Shown here piece after piece: positions 4,916 through 56,872 of a DNA stretch of 64,000 nucleotides. The notes under the pieces were generated by a model. The model saw nothing but the letters and a program-made list of their open reading frames with translations, was not told the DNA's origin and ran no database searches. The translations under genes and the position numbers were made by a program. Source of the stretch: Trypethelium eluteriae (Eukaryota); assembly GCA_051942245.1 (NCBI GenBank), contig JAVECL010000024.1, positions 1 to 64,000 of the forward strand, written 5' to 3'. Every line of letters starts with the position of its first letter. Within the stretch, counting starts at the first letter, position 1.

Positions 4916-6033
4916 ATGGCAAATGGTACCGCTTCAGTTCCCCGATTGCAACAGCCACCAAAGGATGGAGGGAGCTACGTGATTCCGCAATTAGAGGGTG
5001 AAATGATAACGATACCGGGCAGCAAGGGCGTTTTCCGGGTCTTAGCATCCTCTCTCCAGACTGGCGGAGCGATGTCTGTATTCACGAGCGGAGGAGTCCT
5101 GGCAGACGCGCCGGGATTTCACCACCACAACGAAGCTCATGATATCTTCATTGTCACCAAAGGATATATGAAAATTTGGAACGGAGATCGTTGCAAGATC
5201 CTTGGTCCAGGTGATTTCACATCAGTGCCTCCAGTATGTCCAAGGAAACCTCGACACAATCTATCACAGAAGAAATTAATTGTCTTACTCAGGGAGTCAT
5301 TCATAATCCCCACACCCTGGGCCCTCACTCCGAAAGCTTCGGTGTGATCACTCCCGGTGACTGGCTCGACTTCTTTCGCTATATAGGCGAGTCTTATGAC
5401 GGCATTGTTGTCCCCGAATCCGACTCTCGGAATATTTTGGAGCACTTGATTCCTAAAGTCAAAGCCGCAGCAGGCAAATACGATGTCGTCTTCCATCCGG
5501 AGCATAAAGGCTGTGCTGTCAGCGAATGGACCACTGAGGACGAAGTCATCCCGGACACCACCAAGTCATACTATCTGAGGGCCAATACCGGTCCGCGGTG
5601 GATCCTCGGCGGTGTGATTTCACGTCCATTTATCACCACGAAGCAATGCGATGGCAAATTTGCCATTTCCAGTATTGAGTCTTCTTCGGTGCACAAGGCT
5701 TCTTGTCCGTTCCAACGCAAACTGACATTTCCTCGCACACATCATTGCTTTGCTGTGCAAGAGGGCGTGCTGGACGTCGTTGTTGGAGATGCTTCGTCAT
5801 GTCGTGTTGCGGAAGGAGAGGCCATATTCGTGCCGGCCGGTATTCCCTTTCAGCTGAACTTCTCGAGCAAGTTCGTGAGAGTCTGGACTTTCACAACTGG
5901 CGATGGGATAGAGTCCTTGATTCATCATGCCGGAATACCATTTGGTAGCTATGTGCTTCCAGACAAGTCGAAGCCTTGGGAGGAAAGGCAGTTGTTGGAA
6001 GCATGCCAAAAATTCTCCGTGCAGGTGTCATGA
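4916..6033 (+). CDS. Quercetin 2,3-dioxygenase-like bicupin; 2 exons
   Basis: Cupin metal motif GFHHHNEAHDIF...GDFTSVPPGVIHNP, YYLRANTGPRW, second cupin GEAIFVPAG; intron 5234..5292 (GTATGT...CAG). Confidence 0.85.
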
Positions 6034-6498: not shown

Positions 6499-9400
6499 CT
6501 ACCATCTCCTCTTCTTTGGCCGTTCAGCCCACTGCCTTTGTCTCCACGCCGCCAGACCAGTCACTGAGAAGAGTCCTGCTCCAACGATGAAACAAGGGCC
6601 CATCCATAGCTGAGCTCCAAGGAAATTGTTTGATGCTCCTGATGCAGCAGTAGCGACCGGTCCCGAAATGAGAGCGCCAACCCCTGCCGCAGCGTAAACC
6701 ATGCCCATTCGCGTGCCCAAGACGGCAAGGGAAGGGCAGACGTATGGAAGCACGACTGCAGGGAGGGTTGCTAACATGCCGCTAGCAAAGCCATAGAAGA
6801 CGAGAAAGCCAACGAAGCCACCAAGATTGTGAACTGCGATCCATGAGAACGCGAGGATGCCGCTGAAAAGCTGAGCGGTGAAGAGAAGGGCTTCCCCGCC
6901 AATGAAGTCGGACATGAAGGCCGGCACTGTGCGGCCAAAGAATTGAGCTGCATTGATGACGGCTACGAGATAGAAAGCTGTACTTTGGCTTGCGTGGAGC
7001 TCCGATGTTGCATACACAGTCGTGAGAAAGAAGGGTACGAGGAAAGCGCAAAAGATGAAGAAGGCAGCAGCGATGAAGAATACCATGGGGAGCTCCTTGA
7101 ATGCCGACATGTCCAAAAGTTGCCGTGTTGGCTTCTTTATGTGATCGAGCGGGCGGATGATGAGCGCGGCAACCGCAAGAGTGATCAGTGCAATAAACCC
7201 CATGATACGTGTTGCCCACGCAAAATCAAGCTCGACTAGGAGTCTTCGAAAGACGATGGGGTAGATGACGCCTCCTACAGAGCCACCTGCAGTAGCAAGT
7301 CCGAGAGCCAGTCCCCTTCTATCTTTGAAATAGAGAGGCATCAGTGCTACGCTTGGAATGTATAATAACCCACAACAGAGGCCAGTTAAAATGCCTTGTG
7401 TAAGCATGATTTGATAATATTGTACTGAAAGGCTGAGCATCATTTGGGAGAACACTACTCCCACACCGGCAATGATGAGGATGAGCTTGAAGTATCCTTT
7501 ATCGAAGAGTGGTCCGGAAAAAGCACCAACGACTAAAAGAAGGGCTGCCTGTACGGTTCCGATCCAAGCGATTGAAGACGACGAAAAGTTCTTGAGCACA
7601 CTGGTCTCGTAGTATGCTTGATATATGCCAAAGCTGTTTACGAGACCCCAATTGTTGACGTTAATTAAGAATGCCGCGAGTACTTGAAGCCAGGCTGTGA
7701 TACCACCGTCGGGTGGTTTTAAAGAGATGAGAAAGTCTTCATCTATGAGTGTTGGGTCGCCTTTCTCGGGTAGCTCCCAAGAGACAGTGGGCCTTAGTGG
7801 CGGAGCTAAGGTGGCTGTCCGAGAGATTGACGTCGGTGCCATACTTTTCACGGATTTAGCTTTCAGCGACTCGTCGGATGACTTCCGCGCGTCAGGAACG
7901 AGCGTTTCCTTGGAGTCTGCACCATGTCTGGGCCACTTTCGCGCAGCTAGCAGCTGTCGTCCATTCGATTTTCGAGAAGATCGGTGGGGCAAGTCCCAAG
8001 TTGCGAGTTGAAAAACCTGCTGCATTTGAATCCACGTTTCTACTTCCTCTTCGTCGGAGTCGTAGCCGTTCTGGGTAGGAGGCTCCTCCGAGAGAAGGAA
8101 CGACACTAATCTTTCAACCGACGGATGCTCGTAGACTTGCTTTGGCTCGATGCTGTTTTGGCCCTGAACGGAGTTGATGGCACGGACAAGATTAATGAGT
8201 TGAAGTAAATCCATTCCATTCTGGAAGAAATCATCTTCACTGCAAAGCTCTCGGATCCCCAATTCGAACCGAATAAAGTGCAGAATTGAAGAATACGCGG
8301 CTGATCGGGAGTTTAGATCGAGTTTGACTCTAGAGTCTTTCAGATGAGCATCATATTCATCGAATAGATGTTCGATCTCTTCTTTATAAATGGCATTTCC
8401 TCGTTGGCGTTGGATCGTTCCTTTACCTGCACGTGGAAGAGGCTTTTCTGGACTTGTAAAGAAGATTAGATCGCTGACTATTCGCCCGTGTTTGACACAT
8501 GTTTCGTTCGCGCGCTCCACGTAAGGCCAGATAAGGGCCTTCAAGCTCTTCACCTCGACTTGGAATATCGGTGATCTTTTTGCTTCAACAAGAAGCGCGG
8601 CCTGGAATTTACCCTGCCCAACGATCAAGCATCCAGTCACGTCGGGACTACTTGTAATTATACCTTCCATTGTAACGGGATTCAATTTTTCACCGTTGCT
8701 GAACACAATGACGTCGTCCAACCGGCTCTCATATTTCCAGAGGTCTGGCTCTGTTGGGTGCTTCGAGAACAAATCTTTCGTGTGATACTCTTGCAAATCT
8801 GGGAACGTAACGAAAATCGCTTGCATGAGATCAAGGTGCGGCCTTCGAACAATGACCAATTCATGGAGGCCCCCATCCACCTCACGAAATTCCAAGCCAG
8901 CCCATTCGGCATTGAATTTAAAATAGTGCCAAAATTGAGGGTCCTTCCTGATGAGAGGTAAAGCAAAGAATTCTGTTGCGCCGAGAGAAGAATTCAGTGA
9001 TACGTCGTCAATAAGGATATCGCCAGTAGCTTTCGAGAGCGGTCCACCTGCGTAAGTGAGACCACGTAGCCTTCGTAGGTTTGAGAGAAAAGATTTATTC
9101 TTAGCCAGCTCAACAATGATGGATGGAGGGATGGCACTGTACTCGATCTGGCCATGGATATGGACTGCGTCGATAAGCTCAGCTGTCATTGGCCCCACTG
9201 GCGGAAGGACTATCGTGCTATCGCAGTATATTACTGTAGCAATCGAGTATATGACACCGGCCACGTGAAAGGGAGGGAATGGTGCTAGCAATCTCATGTT
9301 GCCGCACCGTTCTGCAACTTCATTGCCGAAAAGCCAATTTGCGTCCATTGTTGTCGGAACCCCATGTCGAATTGGAACAATCTTTGGAATGCCAGTAGAG

Positions 9401-9991
9401 CCAGATGTATGGAGAAGAAGCCAAGGCTTCATCCGATATTCTTCGAACGACTTCGTAAACGGCCAGTGCTCGACCGGCGCTTCATTAAGCAATTCCGCGA
9501 GCTCTGGTATGATCAGGTGCGTGATTGGGTACTCTTTAAGAATGGATCCAACAATTGGTGGAGCATCCGCTGGGGAAATGAATTTGGTCGCGCCAGCCTC
9601 ATTTAGTAACGATAGATGAGCATCCATGCTGTTTCTCGGAGAAGGGAAGAACATCTGCCGCAAAGTCAGGAGTGGAGGTGATTTGAAGGATTACACTCAC
9701 GACATGGCCAGTCTTGACAGCAGCCATACATATTATTTGATAACGGAGATCGCTATGTCCAAGATATACCAAAGGCTCAAAACTTGAAGAGGTTCCACAA
9801 TTTTCTTTGATCCATAGTGCACAGCGATTGATTGCATTCGCAAAGACGCGGTAAGAAATATTTCGAAAGCCATCTTCCGCGTTCTTAGAACGGGGTATAG
9901 AGGCATATGGTCTTTGATGATCGGCTTCGGCGCGCTCATCTATTAATGCAGAAAGTAGTCGTTTGCCATACGGGAGAGAAGACTCTGCCAT
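6499..9991 (-). CDS. NRPS-like adenylation + thiolation domains fused to an MCT/Mch-family MFS transporter (about 1148 aa); 2 exons
   Basis: Exon 1 9701..9991, intron 9655..9700 (GTGAGT...GCAG), exon 2 6499..9654 stop-free. A-domain motifs LHTSGSTGIPK, YAGGPL, GATE, YHTKDLF, RLDDVIVFSNGEKLNP, LPRAGKGT. T-like DDFFQNGMDLLQL. MFS start PPDGGITAWLQVLAAFLINVNNWGLVNSFGIYQAYY followed by about 12 hydrophobic segments. Confidence 0.85.
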
Positions 9992-10759: not shown

Positions 10760-11977
10760 TTAAAACGCCCATTGCTGCATCCAGAGATCCATCCATTCAA
10801 AACTGACCTTGTTAAGTGCTCTCAATGTCGGACTATACTGAACTGTCTGTTTTGTTTCCAGGGTGACTGAGCGTGCCTTTGGGAACCGCACGGCCTTATC
10901 GGCCAAATTACTGTAAAACTCGAAGAGTTTTGCTGCTGGATTCAGAGCGTAGTCGGGTGTTTCTGACATGTTTTTCTGGAGCGCGGTGACCCATTCTGTA
11001 AATTCTACAATGGCCACGTCGCCGCCCAGATGCTTGACAATAGCCGGTAGCAAAGAGTGCCAAGAACAGGTCCGCGGGTTGACGATGTGATACACTGCAT
11101 TTGAAGAGGTCTGACTCTTCGACCGCCTCTGCGAAAGCTCCATTTGGCAAGGTAGAAGATCCACGACAACCTGCGCGAGCAAATCGACGGGGATCCAGTC
11201 AATTGTTTCCAGTGGTCCAAGAGAGCTTGGCAATAGCTTCAAGTGTTTGGAGGATGCAATGAGACTCGGCAGCCACTCCTGCTTGTTCCATTGGCCATTC
11301 TGCCCATGCAATACAGGTCCGCCAACTTGACCGACACGACAAATCGCAGTCTTGACGCCAGTTGTTTTGCTCGCTTCGGCAAGAAGACGTTCGCTTACAA
11401 GCTTCGACTGTCCATAGCCCATACTTGCCACGCGCCAGTCCTCGATAATCTTTTCTGGCACTCTTTCCCGAGATCCCGGTGTTGCGCCCCATCTTGCTGC
11501 GACACTGATGGAGGAGATGAAAAAGAAGGTCACATCGTAAGTGCAGCGGGTTGCGAAGTCGAGAAGCTGCTTTACGCCACGGATCTGGGGTTCGAATGAT
11601 GTGAAAGCGCGATTGAAGTCTACCGGCCATGCATTATGTAATATGTGTGTCGCTTCGCTTGTTAAAGAGCTGTAGACAAGCTCTGATAGTCCCAGAAAGT
11701 CCTTTGTCGTGTCACATTCAAGGAACTCGATTTTGGGAGGACCCAATTCCGTAGAAAGACCGCGGGCGCGATGTGACTTCCATTGGCGCTGTTCTGCATC
11801 GCTCGACCGATTGAGACATATTACTCGTTCAACTTTCGAGCTGCGTACGAGGGTATCTAAAAGATAGCTCCCAAGAGATCCGGTCGAGCCAGTCAGAATA
11901 ATCGTCATCCGAGACTTTGTAGGTTTCTCCGGTGGCGCGTTCACCTTCTTTGTTCCGAATGATGTGAAAGATGGCAT
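10760..11977 (-). CDS. Stand-alone thioester reductase (NAD_binding_4 / R domain), 405 aa
   Basis: Rossmann IILTGSTGSLGSYLL, HNAWPVDF, FISSIS, catalytic GYGQSK (YxxxK), CRVGQVGGP, WNKQEWLPSLIASS, DWIPVD; in-frame TAA four codons upstream of the ATG. Confidence 0.88.
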   Translation of the reverse strand: MPSFTSFGTKKVNAPPEKPTKSRMTIILTGSTGSLGSYLLDTLVRSSKVERVICLNRSSDAEQRQWKSHRARGLSTELGPPKIEFLECDTTKDFLGLSELVYSSLTSEATHILHNAWPVDFNRAFTSFEPQIRGVKQLLDFATRCTYDVTFFFISSISVAARWGATPGSRERVPEKIIEDWRVASMGYGQSKLVSERLLAEASKTTGVKTAICRVGQVGGPVLHGQNGQWNKQEWLPSLIASSKHLKLLPSSLGPLETIDWIPVDLLAQVVVDLLPCQMELSQRRSKSQTSSNAVYHIVNPRTCSWHSLLPAIVKHLGGDVAIVEFTEWVTALQKNMSETPDYALNPAAKLFEFYSNLADKAVRFPKARSVTLETKQTVQYSPTLRALNKVSFEWMDLWMQQWAF

Positions 11978-14061
11978 TGCGTGCTGTTAGAGTAGTCTCC
12001 GATCTTTTTGACGAAATCATAGCATTATTTTCCGTGAAAGGGGTACGACCGAGTTTGAAGCCAGATTGAAGTCTGAAACAACCCTGTAAGAAAACGGTGG
12101 ATCGTCGCGATTTGATTTAGTGTTACACATTCATGATCCATACTGTATCTGTTGACCGACTGAGCGACGCACGCGAAGTGTGGTGCTCGTTGGTGACGTC
12201 GACGGATGAAAGTTGCATCTTGCTGATTGCTATTTAGAGCCACTTTTCAGCGGCTGCAGCACGGGTCAGGTGTGGCGGCAAGGCATGTGGTTTAGCTTCC
12301 CGCCGGCTCTTTTCAGCTCTTTTGTTGGTGACTGCAGAGCTCTGCTTGTTGGGGCCATGATACTTAGATACGATTTTCTAAGGGCGAAGCTATGCGTAGC
12401 GTCCTATGACACCCTTTTCGAGCAACAGTCTCTTTGTCTCGGCGCATCCGCTATTCGTCAAAATATACACTGGTTGCAAAGATGACGGTGCATTCGTGTA
12501 GCAAAGATGTGTATACCCAAGGTGCTGGACAGTGGGAGAGGAAGAAGTCCGGGAGGCAGATGCAGGCGCCGGCAAGATGCGGCAGATGGCTACGATAGCA
12601 CGTGCCCTACCGTACCAATTGAGGCTGAGGGGCCACCCGTAGAGTAAATATCGTATTGTACGCGAAGAATTTGTGCAGCTTCCCACGTTTGCCTTGCTCT
12701 CGGTCATCCCTTCCAAGGTTGGCGATACAGTTGTTGGCATCAACGGTGAGTGTCGCGAAACAACAAGGGGAACATGCTGGCAGAGTGCTGCAATTGTCTT
12801 CAGCGGGTATGCTTGTCTAATCCCAGAGGTGAGCTACTGGTGCGGTGAAATAGGTCATCGGCGACTCCGAGAGATTATGCCTGATGTTGAGGGCATGAAG
12901 GACGCGATCCGGCCATCGGTTTTCGCACGGAAATCCCAGGCTTATTTGCGCAATAAGCTACAAACAGCCAGAATTGTGCACCAAATAGCGGCAGAGTGTC
13001 GGGAACCGTCACTGTAAGTCTTTCATCTTACCGCTTTTCAACGAACGGATTTCTCCCGATCCGGGACAGTACATTATCATGTATGTAGTATGTGTCGTGC
13101 AAGGGTACCCCAGAGTCAAGGTCTCAAAAGAAGCGATGAAAGTTGCTGTGTCGTAGGTTAAGTAATTAGATTTCTAATAATTTAGTCTATCTAGCTGGTG
13201 TGTAAGAAGTGCGCAGGTAGAGGTACGGTAGTTTTAGTCCTCGTTCTCGGTTCGTCTACGATAGCGGCGACCCTCGACTCTCCCTTCAACTACCTCTATA
13301 GCTACTTGCCCGAGTACGGCCGACATGAAGGTCCAAAATTTCTGCACTTTAGACAGACTCGGCTCGCTTTGCCTCACAAGCGATCTCTTCTCCTGGCGAT
13401 TGACGTCGAGTCAGGAGCCTAACGCAAAAAAGCGCAAGAACAACCGGCATGGAGTCGGCAGGAAAAAACCGCACACAGCCTTTGCGTGCCTCCACGTCCA
13501 CTGCAATTCAAGGTCAGACTTGAGATTGGACTGGCAAGAAGTCAGCAGCTTGCAGCCTGACTACGTAGTTCTCCCTCCTCGGCCGAGACTACATTTGTAT
13601 TACTGTGGTCCGTCAGCCGCAGATCCCCATGACACATCCTTGAAATCATCCCAAGGCTGTGGAACGCGGCCCGGGGCACTGCACTTACAATGCAATGCAG
13701 CGCAGCACTTCACCTATTGACCTAGTCCGATCCACTGAGCTCGACATAGCTGTGTGGACCCAACGATTACAGATTACAGCGCCGTCCCTAGTCCTTGGTC
13801 CTTTGGGCTCTGCTAGCGGGTCCACGGCCCACTTCTCTCCATGGCTTGCCAGTGCATTTAGGTAAGGTAAGATTGCGTATGAGCGTTAGAGAGAGTAGAG
13901 CTATTGGCAGCTCTAGACAGAGAGTCATTTATACGATGTCGCCAACATCGAATGCATTACATCGCTACTTTCAAGACTCGATCGCTCAGATCGCCTCACA
14001 GAAATATCTCCATTAATCCTTTCTTGAGTACTCCGTAAAGAAACTGCGTCTGCCCCTCACA

Positions 14062-16567: not shown

Positions 16568-17424
16568 GATTGAGACTGTGACTCGCCAGGCTGCAGTAGT
16601 AGAGGGAAGTTGAGGATTGAGATATAACGAATTTATATTCCACGGTGTTCTTTATGCCCCGTATACATAGGATGACGAGTTGGCTATGACTTGTTATGGA
16701 GCCGCGTGCAATAGATGAGATGAAGGAAAAGAGGATTGGAGATGAGGGCTTTTGGATATCTTCATATACACAGACTTCTCCCGTTGTCGCAAGTATACCC
16801 TAACGCTGGACACACAAACATTGCACCGTCCAATGCTCGATCCAGCAAAGACAGGAGACTCGTCCCGTCCCATTTCCCGTGTCCGCTGCTTCGTAGCATG
16901 GTCAAGCCACAAGGAGGATGGAGCGAGGACGTTAAAGCCACAGCCATGACACGGCAGAGAATGTTTGAAGAGTGCTGCAGCCTTAAAATCGCATCCGGAA
17001 CTGTGGTAGCGAGTAGATGTGCCGTGCCGTGCGGACGAACAATGAAGCCGACTGTGGCTAAGTTTTGGTGTTTCGTGCATTGTGCATTGTTCAAGCGCGG
17101 CAATGACGTCTCACGGCGCCCACCGCGCCTTTGACTGTCCGCCTCAATCGAATTCCTGAAGTTGACATCGGCGCTAACAGCAATCTGAAATCCTACAGAA
17201 GCTGAACAGTATGAATTGGCTAATGACTCCATTTTCCGAGCATGCAGTCACACGTGGCTACTGGCAACATTTATACTCTTGCCACTAGATTAATCTGCGC
17301 GGTAAGCACATGGCCCTGGGCAGTAACACCTCTGAAGGCAATTCCTGTGTTAATCAATGCTATTCAGTGTCAAGCTTGATACCTATTCAGATCCTAACTG
17401 AGAAGTTCTATCAAATCCGAGGGA

Positions 17425-20400
17425 CTAGGCTTTTGCTGAAGCGAATCCCGCGATCACTCTAATCGTTCTAGCCTCTGGCAGCTCTCCGTCGGTCCAATCC
17501 ACTTCCTTAAAGCCTGCCTCCATCATACACCTCTGCCATCGATCCTCACTAGTGACTGCATGCTCGCGCCCGTCCTCAAACAACCACCATCCTTCGAACA
17601 GCCCGACTGCGATATCCAGCCAAAACATATTATGAGTTATCTCCACAAGAGTCAGGACACCATCGTCGCGCAAGAGTCGACGAAGCATTGTCAAGGAACG
17701 AGTTAGGTTCCGTGTCGCATGGATACAGTTGGTGGAGATGATCACGTGGAATGAGTTGAGCCACGATGGCTTGGGCTCAGTCTCAATGTCCAGGACGGAA
17801 AACTCCATGTTGGGGACATTCTTGAACGTGCGTTTGGCTTGCGCCACCAGCGATGCTGAGAGATCTGTGAAAACATAGCGGAAGGGGATTCCGAGTTTCT
17901 GGAGATGTTCGACAATGTATTTGGTGGTGCCACCAGTGCCTGCTCCGACTTCGAGGATTGAAAATTTGCCCGGTGTCTTAGGCCTGGAAAGGGCTCTTGC
18001 CAGGAATTCACCAAGAGCGAGAGTAGCGGAGCGTACAAGCGGCCAGTTCTCGTAAACGTCGTCAAGGTTTTGCTTGTTCGCTTTATCGCCGAAAACGAGC
18101 TGCAATCCGTCTTTGGCGCCGGTCAAACACAGTGCCAGCTCGGATCCTGTTACTTGAACAAGCTTGTGGACGTTAGCGTGCTGAGGATACTCTACAAGAA
18201 TTTGGGTAAAAATGCTGCTGGCTGGTGTAGGATCCACGGGTTTCGATGTTCGGATAAATTCTCCCTGATCATTGCATTTTATGAGCTTGGCGTCTTCAAG
18301 AACGCGGAAGAGCTGGCGGACGAGCTGCTTGTGTCTTGGTAAGTGGGAAATGCTTGGTACGACGTCATTGGCCTTGAGCTGTGCCATGTCACGTCCCAAT
18401 ACAGCAAAGCCTTCGACGACGTAAGCAAGAACAAGACTTGCCTGACGAGGATATGCGTGCTCCCAGAATCCAGCAGCCTTGGTTTCGACAGCGAAGCGGT
18501 CGTACTCAAATTTACTCTCTACGAATGCCTCGTGGGGTCGAATCGTTCCTGGCAGAGACTGCGTGCTCTCCCCAGGAGGTTGTATGTTTTTGGCCTCACC
18601 CGATCCCTGAACTGTTGCGAGATTCGCCTCATCGGGTCCTGTCCTGTCAGACCCAATACCTAAAACAGAGTCAATGTGGGTACAGATTGCCCGCACATTG
18701 GGGAAGAAAAGGATTTTGTTCAGATCAATCTCGATTCCAAACGAAGCTTGAAGGTCATTCAAGAGTTCCATAACAACGAGCGAGTCAATCCCGAGATCTT
18801 CAAGCGTGGAGTCATCACTGATTTCGTCCGGAGGAATGTCTGTTACACGGTGCAAAATTTCTCTCAGCTCCTGTCTCTTACTACCTGCGCGAGGTTCTAA
18901 GGGTTGTGATCGATCTGACACTGGCTCTGGAGGCGTAAATTGCGATTGAGCTGGAGTTGAAGCTCCAGAGTCATCTTTCGGTGCATCCACGCTATTCGAT
19001 ATACCGGTGTTATTTGCACTCTGCAACGCCTGGGCTAGAACAGACATCGATGTCCTCGTGAATTCAAATCCTAGGAAGGCAATCGCTACTCTCTCCTCCT
19101 TTGCATCGAAGATGTAAACGTCGCATTCGGTGCGCTGATCGGTGTCCTCTGTCAGGAGCGCATAAGCCAACCAATCTCCAGCATGGATGTCAAAGCTACC
19201 GCTGGTAACGATCTGCTTTATACCTAAGCATACGAGGACCTCTTCGGTGCTTGGGTGGCAAAAATAATTGACAAGAATGCCAGCAAACTGCATGAGGCTG
19301 TCGATCACCGGTGTATCGTATAAGTTTTCGCTGGAGTCGAGCCGGGGATTGACTTTTGCGACTACTCGTCCTGCTGCTTCATGACCCATGCAGGAAATGC
19401 TTTTGATACCTTGGTACATTTCGTCAAAATGCACTAACCGTTGGATGGCCTGGTAAATGTGCTTCCCCTGCATCTTCTCTCCATCAGTAGCATTGAGGAT
19501 GGAGAGACACCGATTAAATCCAATTAAAGAACCATAACGCTTCATCTTTTGACCAAGTGCAGGATCACCGCGTCTCTTGAGTCCAACCTGACCCGTTGTG
19601 TGGATAGCATCATTGGTTCTGCCATCCTTGGTTCGGCTCGATACCACAAAAGACCATAGAAGCTGCTCGTCGCCTACGCAGCTCAGCGTGAAGAAGATAT
19701 CTTTGTTTTCGTCAAGTCCAATTGGGCTCCTCATCTGCAGCGATTTGATCGAGGTCACATGGGTCTCGTATGTTGCCGACGGGACTAACGCCATTGCAGT
19801 ACGCGAAAGAAGCTCAATGTACAGCGAGACGGGAGCAAGGGCCTGTCTCGAGGTAATGTGACCTTTCAGTAGCATCTTGTAACGCTCACTCTGAGGATCA
19901 ACAAGGAAGACAGCAACTTTCTTGCTTTCGTCTTGGAAGCCAATAAAGGAAAAGAACTCATGGATCAGACGAGGCTGCGCAAATGTATCTGACTCCACGG
20001 CAGGCTTTTCTTCGACTCGATCAACAAATGGAAGCCAGTGTTTGGTCTTTTCAAATTGATACGGAGGCACGTTCTTGTGATCATATTGGTGTCTCTGAAG
20101 GCGATGGAAAGGCCAAAATCGGAGCGCATAGCCAGTTTTACACAACGCAACGGTCAATTCTGCCAGCGCATTCATCACCTCGGGCGACGATAGGACAGAA
20201 GGACGGTATCTTTGTGGTGATGCAGACTTGGAACCCATGCAGTTTTGGACCAGCGAGATTACAGAAGTTCTTTGGCCAGCTTCCAACCACGTGCAGTCAC
20301 CAAACCTCTCAGTCAGCCTACCAATCGCTTCTTTAAAAAAGACGGGCTTTCTAGTATGTTCCGGAATCAACCAGGGCCCTGGATCTGTATTGGTGGACCC

Positions 20401-23400
20401 TTCGGTGCTCAGCTCTATGTGGACTTTCGGCTTCTCTCATCTGATACTAGAAGCCAGGCCGTAAAGATCCGGAAGTAGTGGGTCGGTGAACGCAGAATGA
20501 AAACCGTGTGTGACCTTCAACCGTTTAGCAAGAACAGATTGGTTGAGCTTTGGGTCGTTTGCCACAAAATCATCAAGGGATGAAACAGCTTTCTCGGACC
20601 CTACTATAACATGGTTCAACGGGTGGTTGAAGCAAGCTATCTCGAGCTTGTCCTGATTCTCACCGTCGGCATTGAGAGAGGCAAGAATACTGGAGGTAGT
20701 CTCGAAGTCGGCTTGTAAAGAGATCATGGATCCTCGCTCAGCACCCCATGAGCTGGTAATCAGCTCTGCACGCCGAACAACCAATATAAGGGCATCGGAG
20801 AGCGACAGACATCCGCATATACACAATGCAGTCAGCTGCCCGAAGCTATGGCCAACCACTGCTTTAATGTCCAGTCCACAATCAATCCAGCATTTAGCAG
20901 AAGAATACTGAATGGCAAAGAGACTCGCGTGAAGGGTGGGCACATGAGAAATGGTCGAGCGCTGAAAAATAGCGGGATACAGGCTTCGTTGACCCAACAA
21001 GCGCAAGTAGGTTTCGCATTGATCGAGATGGAATCGCAAAATAGCAGCGTTTCTAAAGAGCTCTTCTGACAAACCCACGTAATCGCTTTCTTGGCCTCCA
21101 AAGACCATGATGACCGAGGGAGGGTTTGGTGATGTGGCGTCCGGAACAGACTCAGGATTTCTAGCAGTCTCTTCAAGTTTCTTCTCCAAATCATCGAGGT
21201 CCGTCACCGTTTCTATGAGGGTGTAAGGCAGTGCTTGATTTACCCGATCCGCAAGGTTAAACAGCAGAGAAGAAAGCAGAAATCTGGAATCAGTACAAGT
21301 GGCTCGCTCCGATCTTATAAACTCCAGAAGCTTCCTGGAGTACATCGACAAGCTTTTCCTTGAAGCAGCGGACAAAATAAGCGGTTGCTTCGATATGACG
21401 ACGGGTGTTCGCTTAGTGTCACCAGTTAGCTTCGGAGGAGCCTGACGCACGGCAACAGCAGCATTGCTTCCAGCTGCACCATAGCTGTTGATGCAGGCTA
21501 GTCGCGAGGATCCTTGCCATGACAGACTCTTTTGCGGGATCTCCATCTTGTCAGGCTCAAGCGCGGGAATCTTCGGGTTGAGGGAGTTGAAGTTGGCTTG
21601 ACCCAGGATTGAACACTTCTGCATCATGAGGAGAACCTTGATCAAACCCGCTACCCCCGATGAAGCCTCTGTATGACCAATATGGCCTTTGACAGAACCA
21701 AAATATAGTGTTTCTTTGCGATCAGGCCCTGAGAACCCCTCTCGAATACTCTGACACTCAATTGGGTCGCCAATTTGGGTGCCTGCGTTACCGACGAAGA
21801 TAAGCTTCTATACGCACTGGGATACTATACAAGAACAGCTTACCGGTGCCGTGTGCCTCCACGTATGATACTTGCGATGGTGCTGCATTTGCCATGTGCA
21901 AGACATTGCTATAAACCCTCGTCTGTGACGTTGAGCATGGAACGGTGATGTGGGCATCGTTCAAATTCTGGTTAACCGAGGAGCCGACGATAACTCCTAG
22001 GACATTGTCATGCTCTTCCAGAGCAGCTGATAGTGATTTGAGCACAACGACTCCAACGCCTTCGCCTCTACAGTAACCGTCAGCTGAAGCATCAAAGGGT
22101 TTACAAGCGCCCGTAGGGCTTAGAAACCCGGCGGCAGCTAGGTTTTGGTAGTCAAAAGGGCTAGTGAAGATATTAGTCCCACCCGCAAGGGCTCGGGTAC
22201 ATTCTCCGCTTTGGATTGCTCGGCACGCAGCATTGATTGCAACAAGTGAAGATGAACATGCTGTATCAACCGTCATAGCAGGGCCTGTCAATCCAAATTG
22301 ATGGCTGATTCGTCCACTGAAAAAGGCTCGGGAAGTACCCAGCATCGAATATGCTGTTGGTGGATGACATACGACATTGTCATAATAATTATTCGCGACG
22401 GCGCCAAGGTAACAGCCGTAGTCTGTTGGCACAGACCGAGAACCTGATCCTGACCCAAAGAATCCAGCAGATTCGAGTGTTTCATACGCTACCTCAAGCA
22501 AGACGCGCAGCTCAGGATCCCATGAAACTGCCTCGCGCGTTGTCTTTTTAAAGAAGCGATGATCAAAAGCATCGGGATCGTCAATGAAATTGCCCCAGAA
22601 CTGGGTCTCAGGACGATCCGCAATACGTTTACTGTTGAGGATCAATCGGGTAGGAGGTTTCTGTACTGTGGAGACACCGGAGGCCAAGAGCTCCCAAAAC
22701 CTTTCGATAGAATCGGCTCCAGGAAAGCGGCAGGCCATGCCAACGACTGCGATCGAATGGGGAGGATATTGACCATTCAAGTCACGTACCGTCCCAGAAG
22801 ACTGCGGAACACCATTGGTCCCATTGGCGGCCTTTGCCATTGGCGGTGTGGACTTTGCATGTCCATTCGATATTCGTCGGGCAAGACTAAATGGAATGAT
22901 ACCTTCTTCACAACCCAGGACCACCGTCGTCGGATTCTCTGTTGGAAAGTCGTCTAGTGATGCTTTCACTGTTCCATACCAATCTGATGCGTGAAGTAGG
23001 ATACTTTCAAGGGCGACCTTAAAGACTTCATCGCCATGTCCAATTGGCTGACCAGTAGCATTGCGACGTAACGATACCTTCAACCTAGCAGGATCGGGGA
23101 ACTGAAATCCATCCGTTGCGCGACAAAACGCATCCAGGTGCTCCACGGCAGTCGAATAAACCGCGGGGCAGTGATAACGAGCGGTAATGCTGACAGGTTT
23201 GACGCGGAAGCTAGCCTTGCGAAATGACATTGCCAGTTCTGCTCTGAAGTTGGCTGATGTCGTGACCGTTGCACATGTGTCATCAGTGATGCACGAAACA
23301 TATGTCTATTCTTGTCATCAGTAATGGATTCAGGGGAGACAACTAACGCTAGGTGCCTTATGAGACTCACACCCGGATAGCGATTTGAGATGGTGTCAAC

Positions 23401-24015
23401 GTCGTCCCTTGTCAAATCTTCCTTGCTCCATCGGACTGACAACGTACAGGCCAGATCTGGTGGGTCAGCATACATACTGTCGCAGTCTACGTATGCGCCG
23501 ATGCACATAGCTAAACGGATACTAATGGCCACCATATCCCCCAAGTCCTGAGTGCTTCCAGAGAAAGCAATAGCCGCTGCAGTGAGGAAGCCAGCGCAGA
23601 ACCCCTGCACATCATAATGCCTCCCACCTTCAAGCACAGACTGGTACCATGTGTCACCTCCATCCTCGTGAAGATACTGTAAGAATTGTCCTATCTGAAG
23701 AATCGCTGTCAGAGGCAAAGCGATAATGCTTGGTAGAGTTTCTGTAGAGATTCCCAGATCTCCAGAGTCCAGCCAGTGTCTCAGACAATCGAGCTTGTCA
23801 AGTCCAGGCACCCTGCTCAATTTTTCGTCCCTGCTGGCGAGTCGTTGGAAGACATTTGGGAAATCTTTAACGGTGGGTAATAGTCTCTCAGCCATGCCAT
23901 CGCGCACTAAAACCTGATGAATCCGTCTCACATCGCCTGGAGGTGGTAACTGAGCTTGAGGTCCGCAAAGGATCAAAAGCGGAGGTCGTGATTCTGCGCT
24001 GTTCGTTGCCGTCAT
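17425..24015 (-). pseudogene. Non-reducing PKS SAT-KS-AT-PT-ACP-CMeT (2154 codons) with one in-frame TGA at 20437-20439; possibly pseudogenised
   Basis: SAT GFCAG and RYH; KS DTACSSS, EAHGTG, GHIGHTEASSG; AT GHSFG, THGFHS; PT GHITS, DSLMQF; ACP LGIDSL; CMeT LEVGAGTGG, TNCIHAT. Introns 23306..23370 and 21783..21843. ORFs 20437..21645 and 17425..20370 share a frame, and the TGA is the only interruption. Confidence 0.8.
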
Positions 24016-24899
24016 ATCTCTTTTTTCTCATTCAACTTCGAGGGAACTTTGAATTTACTCTGCGTATCATCAAATTAACATCAGATTAATACATCATTTT
24101 CTCTACCATTCTTCTCACCTCGTCAAGTTCGTCGGCAGCAACTGTTCTGCCTATGAAGTTTTCTGCAGTTTCAATCAACTCTTTTCATTTTGTATGGTGG
24201 ATTGTATGCCTGGTAATACCATGCAACGCTGCTTAGTTAGGTCACAATAAGCAATTCATAGCTTCTCCATTTAAAAAGCGGAATGATTGGCACATCTGCA
24301 AACAACTTGTCAATGCGGGCTTACTTCTTACAAGCTACATATCACTGCAATAACAGGGCCGACTATCTGTTCAAGGCGATTGACCCGTCTACAAGGATAC
24401 AGTGCGAGTGGACTAATCGATTTTACAATTCGACGATATGGTAATTCAACAGAAAAAATTTGCTGATCGAGGCTAGACGATCCTACACAAGATTCCTCTG
24501 GAGATTCACATGCTAGTAGTACTGTCGACTATCTTGAAGAACTGTAGTGTACCGTCGGCCCGAATTGCAATCGCTCTGACGAGTTCGCAGTGCGTCTTAC
24601 TGCGCTTGACATCTGTCGCAGTTCTAAGTGGGGGTAGGTTTTCATTTTTTCTACGTTTGTTTTTTGGTGCGGAACTGAAGACTTATCCCGTTTTTTCAGT
24701 TCATCACTGCTCTAGAGTGGTCATGTTATCTAGTTGAAGCGGATCTCCTCTTTTGGCCGTAATTTTGGGCAGCTGAAAGCCACTGCCCGATCCCTGGACG
24801 ATAAGAACAGTATAACGGTATGTATGTTTCGGCCTCTGGTGCCATTAGACATAGTAAGATGCTGCAGGGTGACTCGTTTGGCTTCTGGCGTTGTCGTGA

Positions 24900-25715
24900 T
24901 CAGTCGGTGACACCGGTCTCTTTACCGAGAGCTAGAATTTGAGCTGCGACGACGGCAACGTCTTTCGTCTTGATCGGTACACGATGGTCTCCGTCCCACT
25001 CAACCACACGAGTGGTTCCAGGCTTGCAGTAGTCCTTAAGCAGCTGGCGATGCAATGCAAGGCCGGGATCCTTCATACCATGCACATGGAGAGTAGGCAA
25101 GCACAGTACATGCTCGTCACCCTGCATGAAAGGGCCGCTGACGTTAGCGAAAGCGCCCGTTGTGAGTTCGTTAGCATCGACAAGGGCAAGCGAGTCGGTA
25201 ACCTCAACATCGAGCGACAGTAGTGGCGCGCGGCCTGCCAGAAGCACAGCAAACTTGAACTTGGAGCCAGCCATGGTCGCGCCGAGCTTTGTCGTCCGAA
25301 TCTGTTGTCGCAAGAGCAGGCTGGCACAGACTTTAGCACCTTGACTGAAGCCCATGAGTGCAACCCAGTCCCCTGTTCCCCCCTGTTGGTCGTCGCGGTC
25401 CATGGCTTGGTGCAGGTTCTCATCAATTTTTTCGATCATTGCATCAGGTCCTGGGTCTGGATGCTCGGGTGACCAGCGAAGCCAACGGCGGAATGTTTGG
25501 ACGTGTTGGAAAGTGGGGATCATGCCTGGGCCGGGGGTTGAGGGAAACGGGCCATCTGCGAAGCAGAAGCGGAATTTGTGTCCAAGGTGTTGGATTAGAG
25601 TACGGCATTGGAGCGAGAAGACTTCGGCAGTAACGCCGCCTCCGTGCAGGCAAAGAATCCGTGGAAGGTGTAGCGTGGAACCCGGCTGCGACGAATTGAG
25701 CGGTGAAGAAGGCAT
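24900..25715 (-). CDS. FSH1-family serine hydrolase (CitA/LovG-like)
   Basis: PRILCLHGGG, GFSQGA nucleophile, PTLHVHGMKDPG, WDGDHRVP; intronless; immediately upstream of the PKS on the same strand. Confidence 0.9.
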   Translation of the reverse strand: MPSSPLNSSQPGSTLHLPRILCLHGGGVTAEVFSLQCRTLIQHLGHKFRFCFADGPFPSTPGPGMIPTFQHVQTFRRWLRWSPEHPDPGPDAMIEKIDENLHQAMDRDDQQGGTGDWVALMGFSQGAKVCASLLLRQQIRTTKLGATMAGSKFKFAVLLAGRAPLLSLDVEVTDSLALVDANELTTGAFANVSGPFMQGDEHVLCLPTLHVHGMKDPGLALHRQLLKDYCKPGTTRVVEWDGDHRVPIKTKDVAVVAAQILALGKETGVTD

Positions 25716-27644
25716 CTTGAATGCAGGCTGAGGCGGTGGATCGACAATCAGGAGAAGGCTGGATGGCAGACAAAGAAAGAGCGTTCAAAAGACACGAGAT
25801 AAGTATTCTTGAGATGATTTATCGATTGCCTTCTCAAACTTATGGTACCCCACCCCCAGTCGCCATTTCCGTGATCAGGTCCAACGTCGCGGAAGCTAAC
25901 TTCGGGAGGACGGATATGCGCCGTGCCGCAAGGCTGAGGCTACCTTACCTCTGGTGCTCTAGTGCCTTAGGTATCTACAGTAGAAGTCTGCCTGTTGCTT
26001 CGCATGCAAGACATGGGGGTAAGCTTTGACCTCTTCACGTCGTTATGTTCTTTCTACTGCTCGCACCGTTCTCACATCGGTGCTCCCGTCCCGAAAGCCA
26101 GCAGATCGAAATCTCACGGTTTCTGTGGGGTATTCGCTTCTGGGATAGGGCACTCCGTAGAAGACTCCGTTCTTCGACTAATGTGCGACGTCATGAATCC
26201 CTGCCGCTCGGGTCATCCAAAGCATGCCCGGTAAAGGCGTATTCTGATCGCTGGGCGCCGCAGCCAAGGCATAAACATTTTCACCAGTCAAATTTTCGTG
26301 AAAAATCCGGCAAGATAGAAGATCAAGAGCTGGTGGAGTCGTTCTAGAAGGTGAGACGCCACTATTACTGTGTACGATAACAGCTTCCCAGCTCACACTA
26401 ACTTGTAAAGCCGGCGGATACGATGGCGCTGCGTACAATTAGGTAGATTGAAAGACTGCTTTAGGAAGCTCCGCATCAGACCTTAACAAGGCGGGCCTTG
26501 ATCTTCCGCTGGGTGATGATTTTGGTTGTAATGTGAGGTTGCGACACTTTTCAAGATGACAACACGTTGACTCAGCAGTAGTTATTCGGTTAGATTGAAC
26601 CAATCTTCTTCACTAATCAGATCGGGAGGCCCAAGCACGCAACCGCTGCTACCATTTCGTAAAGAGTATATGTTGCTGCGTCTACCTAATGGATGATCGA
26701 ATCACCGTGCGAGGTTTCTTCCGTTTGGAATGTTGTGCGTGTGACGACGCATCCAGCAGACCAACAAGATCCTTGCTTATACGTGGGACAGCTGACAGTT
26801 TCCCCCAAGCTCAGATTACATCAAATTCGGCGCAGTTGAGTTTTTCGTACCCTCCAAACTTCAGCAACACTATTTCGGCTAAAGCTGGCTTATGTATGAG
26901 TCTGACCTTAGGAGACTAAAATACAGAGGATTGTTGGCCTCGGAGTGAGATGAGAGCTTCGACAGTTCTGCCCCTTTCCCAGGTGCCTTGTTTTGTAAGT
27001 GACCAGTTTGCACTCATCAGTGTCTAGAGTTCAGCGCGGGACCTCATACACAATATCTCTTTCCTACTCAGTGTTAAGAAACCTTTGCCAGTAAGGAGGT
27101 CAACCATCTGAGTTTTGAGCAGAACGAGTTAAATCTAGATGCTTTGCCGTACTTCCATTACAGTAGATCTGCTTGAAGCTTCAGAGCTTGGCACTCGATA
27201 CGATGTGCTCGCAAAAGGTACCTGATGTTTTCTCTCAAGCAATGGGTCGATTGCTGATTCTCGCATCATACGCACGTCCCAAAACTAGACGCAGTGGACT
27301 ATCTTGTGTAGGAGGGCTGTACGAGATCGGTTTTCAGCTCGTGTGATCAGTCCGCGTGGACTTCGTCGCGCTGAAGCTGTGCAGGAAGCTGTGTAGAGTT
27401 AGTGCAAACTAGCAATATTGTAACAGCCATCCATCCAGCCGAAGTGCGTTAGACGGAGATTTAAGCTCGCATCTTCTGAGGCACTGATCAGTATAAGTTG
27501 ATCCGCTTGGAAGAACTACTCATGGTGGATTTCGTTCTTTGCCATTGAGCTCCATGAGTTATCTGATATCGTGAAAATTATCCTAGTCATCTGTTAGAAC
27601 AGACAAAAGAAAAGGTCTCGCAGGCGTTAAGCCTGGCTCCACCA

Positions 27645-28383
27645 ATGGATTCTACAACGAGGGTTCTGGCCGCAGTGCTGCTTCTTGCAGGGGTTTCCAC
27701 AGCCAGTACACCGACTAGATTTGCACCTGCGGTATCACAGGATCTTCCTCTCACATATGCCAACGGCGTGGAGGTCTCTCCGCCGGGACTTACATTATCT
27801 GAAGCTCGTACGTAAGCCTTCTTTCTGATCTATCCATTACTATTGCAGCGTTCTTTATCTCGTATGCCTTGGCGTTGCGTATCGAGAGCTAATGGGGAAC
27901 CTACCAACTTCAGAAGTAGCAGAAGCTCCGACTCTAGGCAATCCCGGTTTGGTCGAAGCTGGCAGCAAATATACTCTCGTTATGGTTGACTACGACGTCG
28001 ACGTCAGTGGTACGCAAACTTCAGTCCTGCAGTGGTATCAGCCTGACTATGCCCTGGATTCGTCGGGTAACAACCTCGTCGTGACCAATACATCGGCGAC
28101 CAATGCTTCATATATTTCCCCTCAACCAAACCAAGGTTCTCCCCACACCTATGTGGCTATCTTGTACCAACAACCTTCTGACTACGAGCTTCCTAGCTGC
28201 CTTGACACGCAGCTATCGGTACGTGGTGGACTCGATCTTCGGGACTTCACAAACGCCGCAGGTCTAGGCCAGGCCGTCGCAGCGGACTGGTTTCAAGTCC
28301 AAAACCCAATTCCCGCGACGACAACCTACCCAATCACTTCAACATCGGTGTTGAGTTACGACTGTAGTCGAACTGCGCATTAA
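27645..28383 (+). CDS. Secreted PEBP-like protein with diverged motifs; 2 exons
   Basis: ATG 27645 MDSTTRVLAAVLLLAGVSTA (signal-peptide-like); intron 27808..27913; YTLVMVDYDV, YISPQPNQGSPHTYVAILYQQP. Confidence 0.8.
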
Positions 28384-29390: not shown

Positions 29391-29998
29391 ATGCCTAGCA
29401 ATACCAGCGTCAAGCAGGGGTTGAAGCTCATCGAGGATGATAAGTCGAAGGTGCTAGGGCTTACTGTGGGCAATCGGTCGATCTCAACAGGCGAATTTGT
29501 TCCCAAGGCTGGTATGCCCCGCTGCGCGACTACCTAGCCTTCCGAAATTCCCGCCGTCAACCTCTTACTGACTTATGTAACCTTCTTATAGATGCTCAGT
29601 CAGCACCAGAAGTCTCTTTTGGGGTGCCCTCACAGTCAGCCACCTACTTGGTCGTCGGTCTGGACCTCGATGCCCCTCTACCTTCTTTTGGCGTCCTTGG
29701 GCCCATCCTACACTGGATTCAGCCTGGTTTCAAGGCATCGCCATCCTCAAACACCTTAGCTTCTTCCGAGCCGTTCGTTGCAAATTACATCGGTCCGGCC
29801 CCTCCTCCATTCAGTGGCCCCCATCGCTACGCATTTTTCTTGTATGAACAGCCCGAGGGTTTCAGTGGCAAGAAGTATGCACCACCGAACGGAAAGCCGC
29901 TGGGAAATATGAATAGGATGAGATACGATTTGGATGCTTGGGTGAAAAAGGCTGGTTTGGGTGAGCCACTTGCTGTCAATTACTTCAAGAGCAATTAA
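29391..29998 (+). CDS. Cytosolic PEBP-like (Tfs1-type) protein; 2 exons
   Basis: ATG 29391 in GCCACCATG context; intron 29512..29591; DLDAP, ILHWIQPG, YIGPAPPPFSGPHRYAFFLYEQP. Confidence 0.88.
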
Positions 29999-54998: not shown

Positions 54999-56872
54999 AT
55001 GGCTGATGGCAACAATGTCATCGCTATTGCGCCCACTGCTGAGGTAGTTCGGCCCTGACGAGTGCGCAGGGCTTCGTGCTGTACTGACTACCTACAGAAA
55101 CCCGCTGACGTGAAGGATACCGATGTAGTAACTGATTCGGCTGAAGCGGCAGTCAATCCCGCATGTGAGTTGTAGATCAGCATACTTCCAATACACTCAA
55201 ACTACACAATACTAACATCGATCATCTTGTTTAGCCACCGATCCTGCCGCTCTTGAAGACGCAGACACTGGCGCTGAAGCCGACACGAACGAGCAAGAGA
55301 AGGCTCAAGATACCAATATGTCTGATGACAAGGCCAACGCTCCCGGTGAGGAGACTGCTACTCCTCAAGCAGAGTCGGCAGCTGGTGCTAAGGCAACCCC
55401 AGCGTCTGCAAACAAGAAAGAGAAGCGAAAGTCAAGTGGAGGCGTGCCTGAGCACAAGACCAAGAAGCTCAACAGCAAGAAGTCTAAGCCAGACCTACAC
55501 CTCGACATCCAGGCAGGTGAATTCTGGTGGGCTCGTATGAAAGGCTATCCACCTTGGCCTGCTGTCGTCTGCGATGAGGAGATGTTACCCGAAACACTCC
55601 TCAAGAACAGACCTGTTAGTGCTGCACGCACTGATGGCTCTTATCGCGAAGACTTCTTGGAAGGCAATAAGAACGCCAAGGAGCGTACTTACCCTATCAT
55701 GTACTTGGGTACCAATGAATTGTCAGTCTCACATATTCATTCAAGGCCATGTCGGCCTCTAGCTGTCGACGAGGCTAACATTTACATCTAGTTCCTGGAT
55801 CAAGAATACCGATTTAAGCAAGATCGACCTGGAGCAGATCAAAAAGGAAGAACAAGGCAAGAAGCCGAAGCACCTTTGGAACGCCTATGAGATATGTGCT
55901 GAGGAGCACGACCTTCAACACTTCAAGGATGTTCTTCGTGAGCACGAGAAAGCCATGAGCCGTGACGCAGAAGAACGTAATCGGAAAGAGGCAGAAAAGG
56001 AGGAGAAGGCGGCAAAGAAGGCGGAGCGCGCCGAGAAGGCTGAAAAGCGTAAGTCCAAAGGCAAAGCTGAAGATGAGGATGAGGAGATGGAGGAAACAGA
56101 ACCGAAGCCAAAGACACCTGCTTCTAAGAAACGCAAAAGCCGCGGTGAGCCTGATGCCGAAGACGAGAAGGTAAACATTTCGCCCTTGCAACCATTTGGA
56201 GGTCCAAATCCGAATAAGCTGACTGGTATATAGCCTGCCAAGACTCCCAAGATTAGTACGAAGCTGAAGCTTGGTTCCAAGCAAACTCCTAATGGTGAAT
56301 CTTCCACCACAAAATCTGGCAATAAAAACCGGAAGGTTGTCACGAAGCCCTCTTCTGATGATGACACTGAGAACAAAGAGGGCGAGAAGCCTCTTACCGA
56401 GGCCGAGAAACTCGAAAAGCGTCGCAAGACTGTGCTCTACCTACGCCATCGCCTGCAGAAGGGCTTCCTGGCGCGCGAGGCACCGCCGAAGGAAGAGGAA
56501 ATGGAAACCATGAACGACTTCTTCACGCAGCTTGAGAGCTACGCCGACCTAGAGCTGAGTATTCTCAAGGCAACAAAGATTCACAAGGTGCTCAAAGCCA
56601 TTCTCAAGTTGTCCTCTATTCCCAAGGAGGATGAATATCACTTCATGGATAGGAGCAATCGGTTGCTACAGGGTTGGAATAAGGTGCTTGTGGGTGACGA
56701 AAAGGAAGACGATGTCGATGAGAAGGCGGAGGGTGCGGTGAATGGGGAGAAAGGGGAGGCAGTGACGGGGTCCACTGGTAAGGAGGACGGGGAGAAGGCC
56801 GAGGGAGACGGCGACGTGGAGATGAAGGAGGCGAAGGAGGATGCTGGTGAGGGAGAAGCTACTGCCGCGTAA
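54999..56872 (+). CDS. PWWP-domain chromatin protein with C-terminal helical domain; multi-exon
   Basis: WARMKGYPPWPAVVCDEEMLP, YPIMYLGTNEF, VLYLRHRLQKGFL, TKIHKVLKAILKL; several short GT-AG introns. Confidence 0.88.

Follow-up and report, generated by a model that had tools for sequence, protein, structure and literature searches.

A TGA at an invariant tryptophan codon of a non-reducing polyketide synthase gene in Trypethelium eluteriae, a probable strain-specific nonsense allele

Gene structure and the in-frame stop codon

We analyzed a 64,000-nucleotide stretch of Trypethelium eluteriae DNA (assembly GCA_051942245.1, contig JAVECL010000024.1, positions 1 to 64,000), referred to here as the window. 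Its minus strand carries the gene of a large, pigment-type enzyme, a non-reducing polyketide synthase (NR-PKS), and the reading frame of this gene is interrupted by an in-frame TGA. Positions 20437–20439 of the plus strand read t-c-a, and the minus-strand codon is TGA (20439..20437). The minus-strand context is GCT TCT AGT ATC AGA TGA GAG AAG CCG AAA GTC CAC ATA GAG CTG. Two stop-to-stop open reading frames (ORFs), 20437..21807 and 17425..20436, lie in the same frame with this one TGA between them. If the TGA is read through, the coding sequence (CDS) has 2154 sense codons plus a terminal TAG.

A public protein, P0052, was mapped onto the window peptide by peptide. P0052 is a hypothetical protein of a T. 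eluteriae metagenome-assembled genome (MAG). It was 100% identical to the window over its covered part and ended at the TGA. The gene structure was as follows.

17425..24015, minus strand: NR-PKS gene, from ATG to terminal TAG (17427..17425), SAT-KS-AT-PT-ACP-CMeT, without a TE or R domain
23371..24015, minus strand: exon 1, 215 codons (peptide mapping)
23306..23370, minus strand: intron 1, 65 nt, GTGAGT...TAG
21842..23305, minus strand: exon 2, 488 codons (peptide mapping, homologs)
21783..21843, minus strand: intron 2, 61 nt, GTAAGC...CAG; these bounds are 2 nt off the peptide mapping and give the same protein
21780..17425, minus strand: exon 3, which contains the TGA and ends at the terminal TAG
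20437..20439, minus strand: in-frame TGA, codon 1151, at an invariant Trp codon; TGG in a conspecific contig (sequence, homologs, conspecific contig)

The TGA was the sole interruption of the frame. The original prediction had described a single TGA breaking an NR-PKS at codon 1151 of 2154. The sequence, the ORF pair and the three-exon CDS all bore this out, and the three-exon CDS gave the same codon count.

The public model of P0052 has four exons (24015..23371, 23305..22436, 22066..21842 and 21780..20440). Its 369-nt "intron" (22435..22067, minus strand) would take 123 codons out of the KS region, in a stretch where the frame is open and the alignment of full-length homologs runs on unbroken. 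This intron appears to be spurious, judging from the alignment.

The whole window was scanned for same-frame ORF pairs, each ORF at least 110 aa, that were split by one stop. Four pairs were found. Two were antisense to long genes, and one, split by a TAG at 56231-56233, resembled an in-frame intron. The PKS pair is the only true interruption of a conserved domain among the four. The TAG at 56231-56233 (plus strand) separates same-frame ORFs downstream of a PWWP-domain ORF, and a GT..TAG stretch of about 63 nt (~56171-56233) ends there. That stretch looks like an ordinary frame-preserving intron, in contrast with the PKS stop.

Domain architecture

Pfam matches above the cut-offs were obtained for SAT, the N- and C-terminal parts of ketoacyl-synt, Acyl_transf_1, PP-binding, and HTH_51 with Methyltransf_12. 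For the PT region there was only a weak match, to PS-DH, which scored 20 bits where the cut-off is 23.7. The domains were located as follows.

~23485..23730, minus strand: SAT (Pfam)
from ~22756, within exon 2 (21842..23305), minus strand: KS, N-terminal part and first C-terminal part (Pfam)
20314..21105, minus strand: AT, Acyl_transf_1 match, with the TGA inside, 41 residues ahead of the match end (Pfam)
20023..20436, minus strand: rest of AT and post-AT linker, about 135 residues of the KS-AT core past the stop (alignment to solved KS-AT didomains)
19048..19485, minus strand: PT region, PS-DH match below the cut-off (Pfam)
18673..18873, minus strand: ACP (PP-binding), downstream of the stop (Pfam)
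17506..18519, minus strand: C-methyltransferase (HTH_51 with Methyltransf_12/23), downstream of the stop (Pfam)

In the exon 3 translation, the AT match covered residues 235-498, and the stop was residue 457. The motifs DTACSSS, EAHGTG, KGHIGH, GHSFG, GIDSL and LEVGAGTGG were all legible in the PKS translations. We take these to be the KS cysteine and two histidines, the AT GHSxG, the ACP DSL and the SAM-binding glycine motif. The expectation that the catalytic motifs outside the stop were intact was thus upheld for KS, AT, ACP and the SAM-binding site.

No TE or R domain, of the kind that serves for release in usnic-acid-type or citrinin-type enzymes, was found by Pfam, and the protein ends (TAG) 20 residues past the methyltransferase match. 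Three relatives (P0001, P0005 and P0009) likewise end after the CMeT domain. From its sequence, the domain order fits that of a fungal non-reducing iterative type I PKS with a CMeT domain. An uninterrupted frame through the ACP, which is expected of this class, was absent from the window allele; the conspecific contig described below was open at codon 1151.

The stop lies on an invariant tryptophan

The AT-to-PT part of the PKS was used as the query in a homolog search, and 120 proteins were obtained. One of them was P0052, the truncated annotation of the window itself. The other 119 all covered the stop column. They had Trp at that column (119/119), and none had a gap across the surrounding 55 residues. 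The closest relatives besides P0052 shared 66% and 63% identity with the query, followed at about 55% by proteins of Talaromyces, Lachnellula, Claussenomyces, Sclerotinia and Claviceps. As all 119 covering homologs had Trp at this column, the TGA occupies an invariant Trp codon and is one transition from TGG. The original prediction had placed the stop one base from TGG, which agrees with both this column and the TGG of the conspecific contig.

Conservation along the whole protein was also analyzed. The window protein was aligned by MAFFT with 73 homologs of at least 1850 aa, leaving aside P0052 and the 46 proteins below that length. The window protein departed from the consensus at 14 of 397 columns conserved at 97% or more (3.5%, against a median of 0.76%), ranking 7th of 74. 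This excess is compatible with relaxed constraint, or with just a long branch.

Besides the stop, 13 columns were non-consensus (codons 885, 1250, 1707, 1833, 1841 and others), with changes such as W1250C, H885Q and T1707M. T1707M adjoins the ACP serine. Of these 13 columns, A491T is the only one at which the window and the conspecific contig differ, and the other residues are presumably shared by both.

A conspecific contig carries TGG

The PKS locus was covered by a single public run, X1. It was apparently DNA and was available as contigs totalling 36.4 Mb. One X1 contig (16,908 nt, word depth 423) spanned window positions 17000-26000 as a single piece without joints. The contig was genomic because both introns and intergenic DNA were present. 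Over 17000-26000, X1 departed from the window at 15 substituted bases and lacked 7 nt at 17075. At position 20437 (plus strand), the window had T and X1 had C, giving a TGG codon in X1. On sequence grounds, the difference of about 0.17% makes X1 most likely a second individual of this species.

Twelve of the 15 substitutions were transitions and three were transversions. There were no single-base indels. In the direction from X1 to the window, five were C>T or G>A, seven were T>C or A>G, and three were transversions. The 7-nt indel at 17075 was in the 3' flank of the PKS gene, and four of the substitutions (24020-24734) lay between the PKS start and the FSH1-family hydrolase gene upstream of it.

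Repeat-induced point mutation and DNA damage were considered as causes of the change and rejected. On the plus strand, the C>T occurred in CpC, not CpA, and the 15 differences showed no directional excess. An exact-pattern scan of metagenome contigs around the stop site, with A or G allowed at the variable base, returned 0 loci.

Coding differences between the two alleles

Nine of the differences were in the CDS: two synonymous, six missense and one nonsense. They were spread 3:3:3 over codon positions. The pN/pS ratio was 1.09 (7 non-synonymous and 2 synonymous differences at 4928 and 1531 sites, respectively). The probability of at least 7 non-synonymous differences among 9 was 0.022 at an omega of 0.2 and 0.08 at an omega of 0.3. 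Under neutrality, nonsense changes would make up 3-4% of substitutions in this CDS, and nine substitutions would include at least one of them with a probability of 0.23-0.30.

The changes were polarized by the homolog columns. A491T (A in 75 of 76) and W1151* were window-side changes, H398R, G1564S, L1618P and H1908Y were X1-side changes, and T1914I was ambiguous. Both alleles seem to have gathered changes at conserved positions, a pattern that hints at weak constraint on the PKS gene.

Neighboring genes

On the same strand, the PKS gene has an FSH1-family serine hydrolase gene as its immediate 5' neighbor.

24900..25784, minus strand: FSH1-family serine hydrolase gene (Pfam)

No differences between the window and X1 were found in this gene. 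A Lachnellula relative is annotated as one protein in which a hydrolase domain is fused ahead of SAT-KS-AT-ACP-CMeT. The FSH1 hydrolase is likely to release the product of the TE-less PKS.

Further downstream of the PKS are an RTA1-like gene, several alpha/beta-hydrolase genes, an NAD_binding_4 reductase gene, an AMP-binding gene, an MFS transporter gene and a cupin gene. Genes from about 27 kb onward look like housekeeping genes.

At positions 6502-9690 (minus strand) there is a single frame of 1063 codons in which AMP-binding, AMP-binding_C_3 and a carrier-like stretch are followed by an MFS transporter. The carrier-like stretch has GMDLL where a serine is expected. This frame may represent either a genuine fusion or two genes with a spacer between them that happens to be open. 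Just upstream, at 10763-11986, is an NAD_binding_4 reductase ORF that stands alone. Matches to the PEBP (phosphatidylethanolamine-binding protein) family were found in two adjoining ORFs, 27829-28380 and 29444-29995 (plus strand), which suggests a tandem duplicate.

Interpretation: a probable recent nonsense allele

We favor a recent, strain-specific G>A nonsense allele (TGG to TGA) in the individual from which the window came, with a probability of about 0.7. A G>A transition would have turned Trp1151 into a stop in the individual behind the MAG, and another individual would have kept TGG. The base in the window is probably correct in the source DNA. The original prediction, which named a recent nonsense mutation or else a base error, fits both the Trp column (119/119) and the conspecific TGG.

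Translation of this allele would yield a protein ending at Arg1150, within the acyltransferase domain. The final part of the KS-AT core would be missing from it, as would the whole of PT, ACP and CMeT. Solved KS-AT didomains (CurL, 4mz0; CTB1 SAT-KS-MAT, 6fij) align for about 135 residues beyond the stop, through the post-AT linker, and the next Met after the stop is codon 1218. Without a carrier domain no polyketide would be made, and the allele would therefore be null, in a biosynthetic gene that is intact in all other respects. The domain layout indicates that function has probably been lost.

Several points weigh against this interpretation. The window base comes from the MAG consensus, and the comparison used a single run in the form of contigs, which drop rare variants. 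X1 might be the source sample itself, with two genotypes in it. Only nine substitutions underlie the constraint argument, and the homologs used for polarizing them are at most 66% identical. The 14 departures of the window protein among 397 columns may reflect a long branch only.

Alternative explanations

The main rival is a consensus base error in the MAG, with a source individual that carries TGG. We consider it unlikely, though it deserves more weight than any other alternative. X1, the only other data set, has TGG, and the window record is labeled as a MAG. Errors would also strike codon positions evenly, as the nine CDS differences do. However, the 16 differences within 9 kb show a 4:1 bias toward transitions and include no single-base indels, which points to real polymorphism and not to a noisy assembly. 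X1, with a word depth of 423, accounts for at least four of the changes. The other long ORFs of the 64-kb window are intact, including those of a 1039-aa DEAH helicase and a 696-aa ERO1. The original prediction had held that reads showing TGG would refute a nonsense mutation. TGG was seen, but only in X1, which is most likely a different individual with about 15 other differences.

A real TGA might be rescued at the RNA or translation level, either by A-to-I editing (UGA to UGG) or by readthrough with a near-cognate tRNA-Trp. Both would restore exactly the conserved Trp and give a full-length enzyme under some conditions. In the predicted fold, a 7-bp stem closes a hairpin, and the stop A is unpaired in its apical part. 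Excerpts of two papers describe restorative editing of premature stops in fungi (PMC10776026, PMC11156358). According to the excerpts of one of them, more than 70% of fungal A-to-I sites have U at −1, hairpin loops are favored, and the known premature-stop corrections are UAG to UGG (PMC11156358). The PKS stop has G instead of the preferred U at −1 (U-G-A-G). The same excerpts report editing in Sordariomycetes and one Pezizomycete but not in Aspergillus nidulans or Botrytis cinerea, whereas the host here is labeled a Dothideomycete (PMC11156358). The local fold was no more stable than shuffled sequences (z = 0.48), nor is the species fixed for the A allele.

The context of the stop also speaks against readthrough. 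The leaky UGA context is UGA-C, whereas the base after this stop is G. A search with Rfam at gathering thresholds gave 0 matches to SECIS (selenocysteine insertion sequence) or any other element in the whole window. Rescue at the RNA level is therefore highly improbable. The original prediction had listed editing as a less likely alternative. It is indeed unlikely, and the Dothideomycete host and the G at −1 make it weaker than was assumed there. A narrower version, in which UGA is converted to Trp at the RNA level or by decoding only in certain lichen tissues such as fruiting bodies, is a shade less probable still. Production of the PKS would then be confined to those tissues. If this were true, restorative stop-codon correction would reach lichen-forming fungi, here a Dothideomycete, and a site where the stop is UGA and −1 is G.

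Removal of the TGA by a short frame-preserving intron is barely credible. GT..AG pairs 33 and 63 nt apart (GTATCA..AG) do exist around the stop, and a true 63-nt in-frame intron carrying a stop is probably present elsewhere in the window (~56231). However, all 119 covering homologs are gap-free across the 11 or 21 residues that would be lost, including the invariant W and a conserved K-P, and X1 has identical flanks with an open frame. GTATCA is unlike the GTGAGT and GTAAGC 5' sites of this gene, neither candidate contains CTRAY, and 33 nt is shorter than the real introns of the gene (61-65 nt). The earlier rejection of both skips, made for the missing CTRAY and the loss of conserved residues, was thus justified, and W is among those residues.

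Decoding of TGA as Trp or selenocysteine in this organism, suggested by the position of the stop on a Trp column, can practically be dismissed, as Pfam-supported ORFs of the window (the FSH1 hydrolase, ERO1, WD40 and HVSL genes) end at TGA, X1 has TGG at the same codon, and the window holds no SECIS or other Rfam match.

The finding is real but ordinary, being a nonsense polymorphism or a base error.

Implications

The public gene model calls for caution in genome mining. It ends at the TGA and includes the spurious 369-nt intron, so the cluster would score as a fragment. Should the base be real, the species has one open and one null allele of this CMeT NR-PKS, which lacks a TE. Individuals with TGA and TGG would then be a natural test of the enzyme product, and the allele pair would be a possible basis for a chemotype difference in a lichen. 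The nine coding differences, near-neutral in their pattern, suggest that the PKS gene may be dispensable in this species.

The cluster had been described as repairable by one base. TGG is indeed one base away, but repair is unneeded for a study of the enzyme, since X1 provides a natural open allele. The direct importance of the finding is small. Its practical value lies in the natural pair of open and null alleles and in a corrected public gene model.

Comparison with known systems

The enzyme resembles CMeT-containing NR-PKS relatives in its SAT-KS-AT-PT-ACP-CMeT order and in ending after CMeT. In one such relative an FSH1 hydrolase domain comes first, in agreement with the order of the genes here. 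The best named relatives, sharing 50-55% identity over the searched part, have automatic labels, for example "methylphloroacetophenone synthase" in Lachnellula and "Type I iterative PKS" in Claviceps. The usnic-acid enzyme behind the first label has a terminal TE/Claisen cyclase domain. As the PKS here lacks this domain, the label should not be transferred to it. To our knowledge, none of its close relatives has been experimentally characterized.

A literature search for SAT-KS-AT-PT-ACP-CMeT enzymes paired with a hydrolase found nothing. Judging by the search listings, a search on Trypethelium eluteriae and polyketide synthases found no paper on this gene, and one on premature stops or pseudogenes in lichen polyketide synthases found nothing relevant.

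The genes edited in Fusarium graminearum and in Neurospora crassa are alike in having a stop at a codon that is Trp in relatives, one A>G step away. In the portions of the sources consulted, their sites have UAG, hence U at −1, show no variation within the species and belong to Sordariomycetes in sexual development (PMC10776026, PMC11156358). The PKS stop, in contrast, is UGA with G at −1, polymorphic, and in a Dothideomycete.

The closest known case is an ordinary NR-PKS nonsense polymorphism, as in Aspergillus flavus AF36. An excerpt of a later paper describes a single stop induced by a single-nucleotide polymorphism in the NR-PKS gene pksA of this strain (PMC5005231, citing Ehrlich and Cotty 2004). 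The likeness is a one-base stop in the NR-PKS of an otherwise complete cluster, with an open gene in other conspecifics (PMC5005231). The difference, going by the same excerpt, is that in AF36 the product is known and its loss has been demonstrated (PMC5005231), whereas the PKS of T. eluteriae is known from its sequence.

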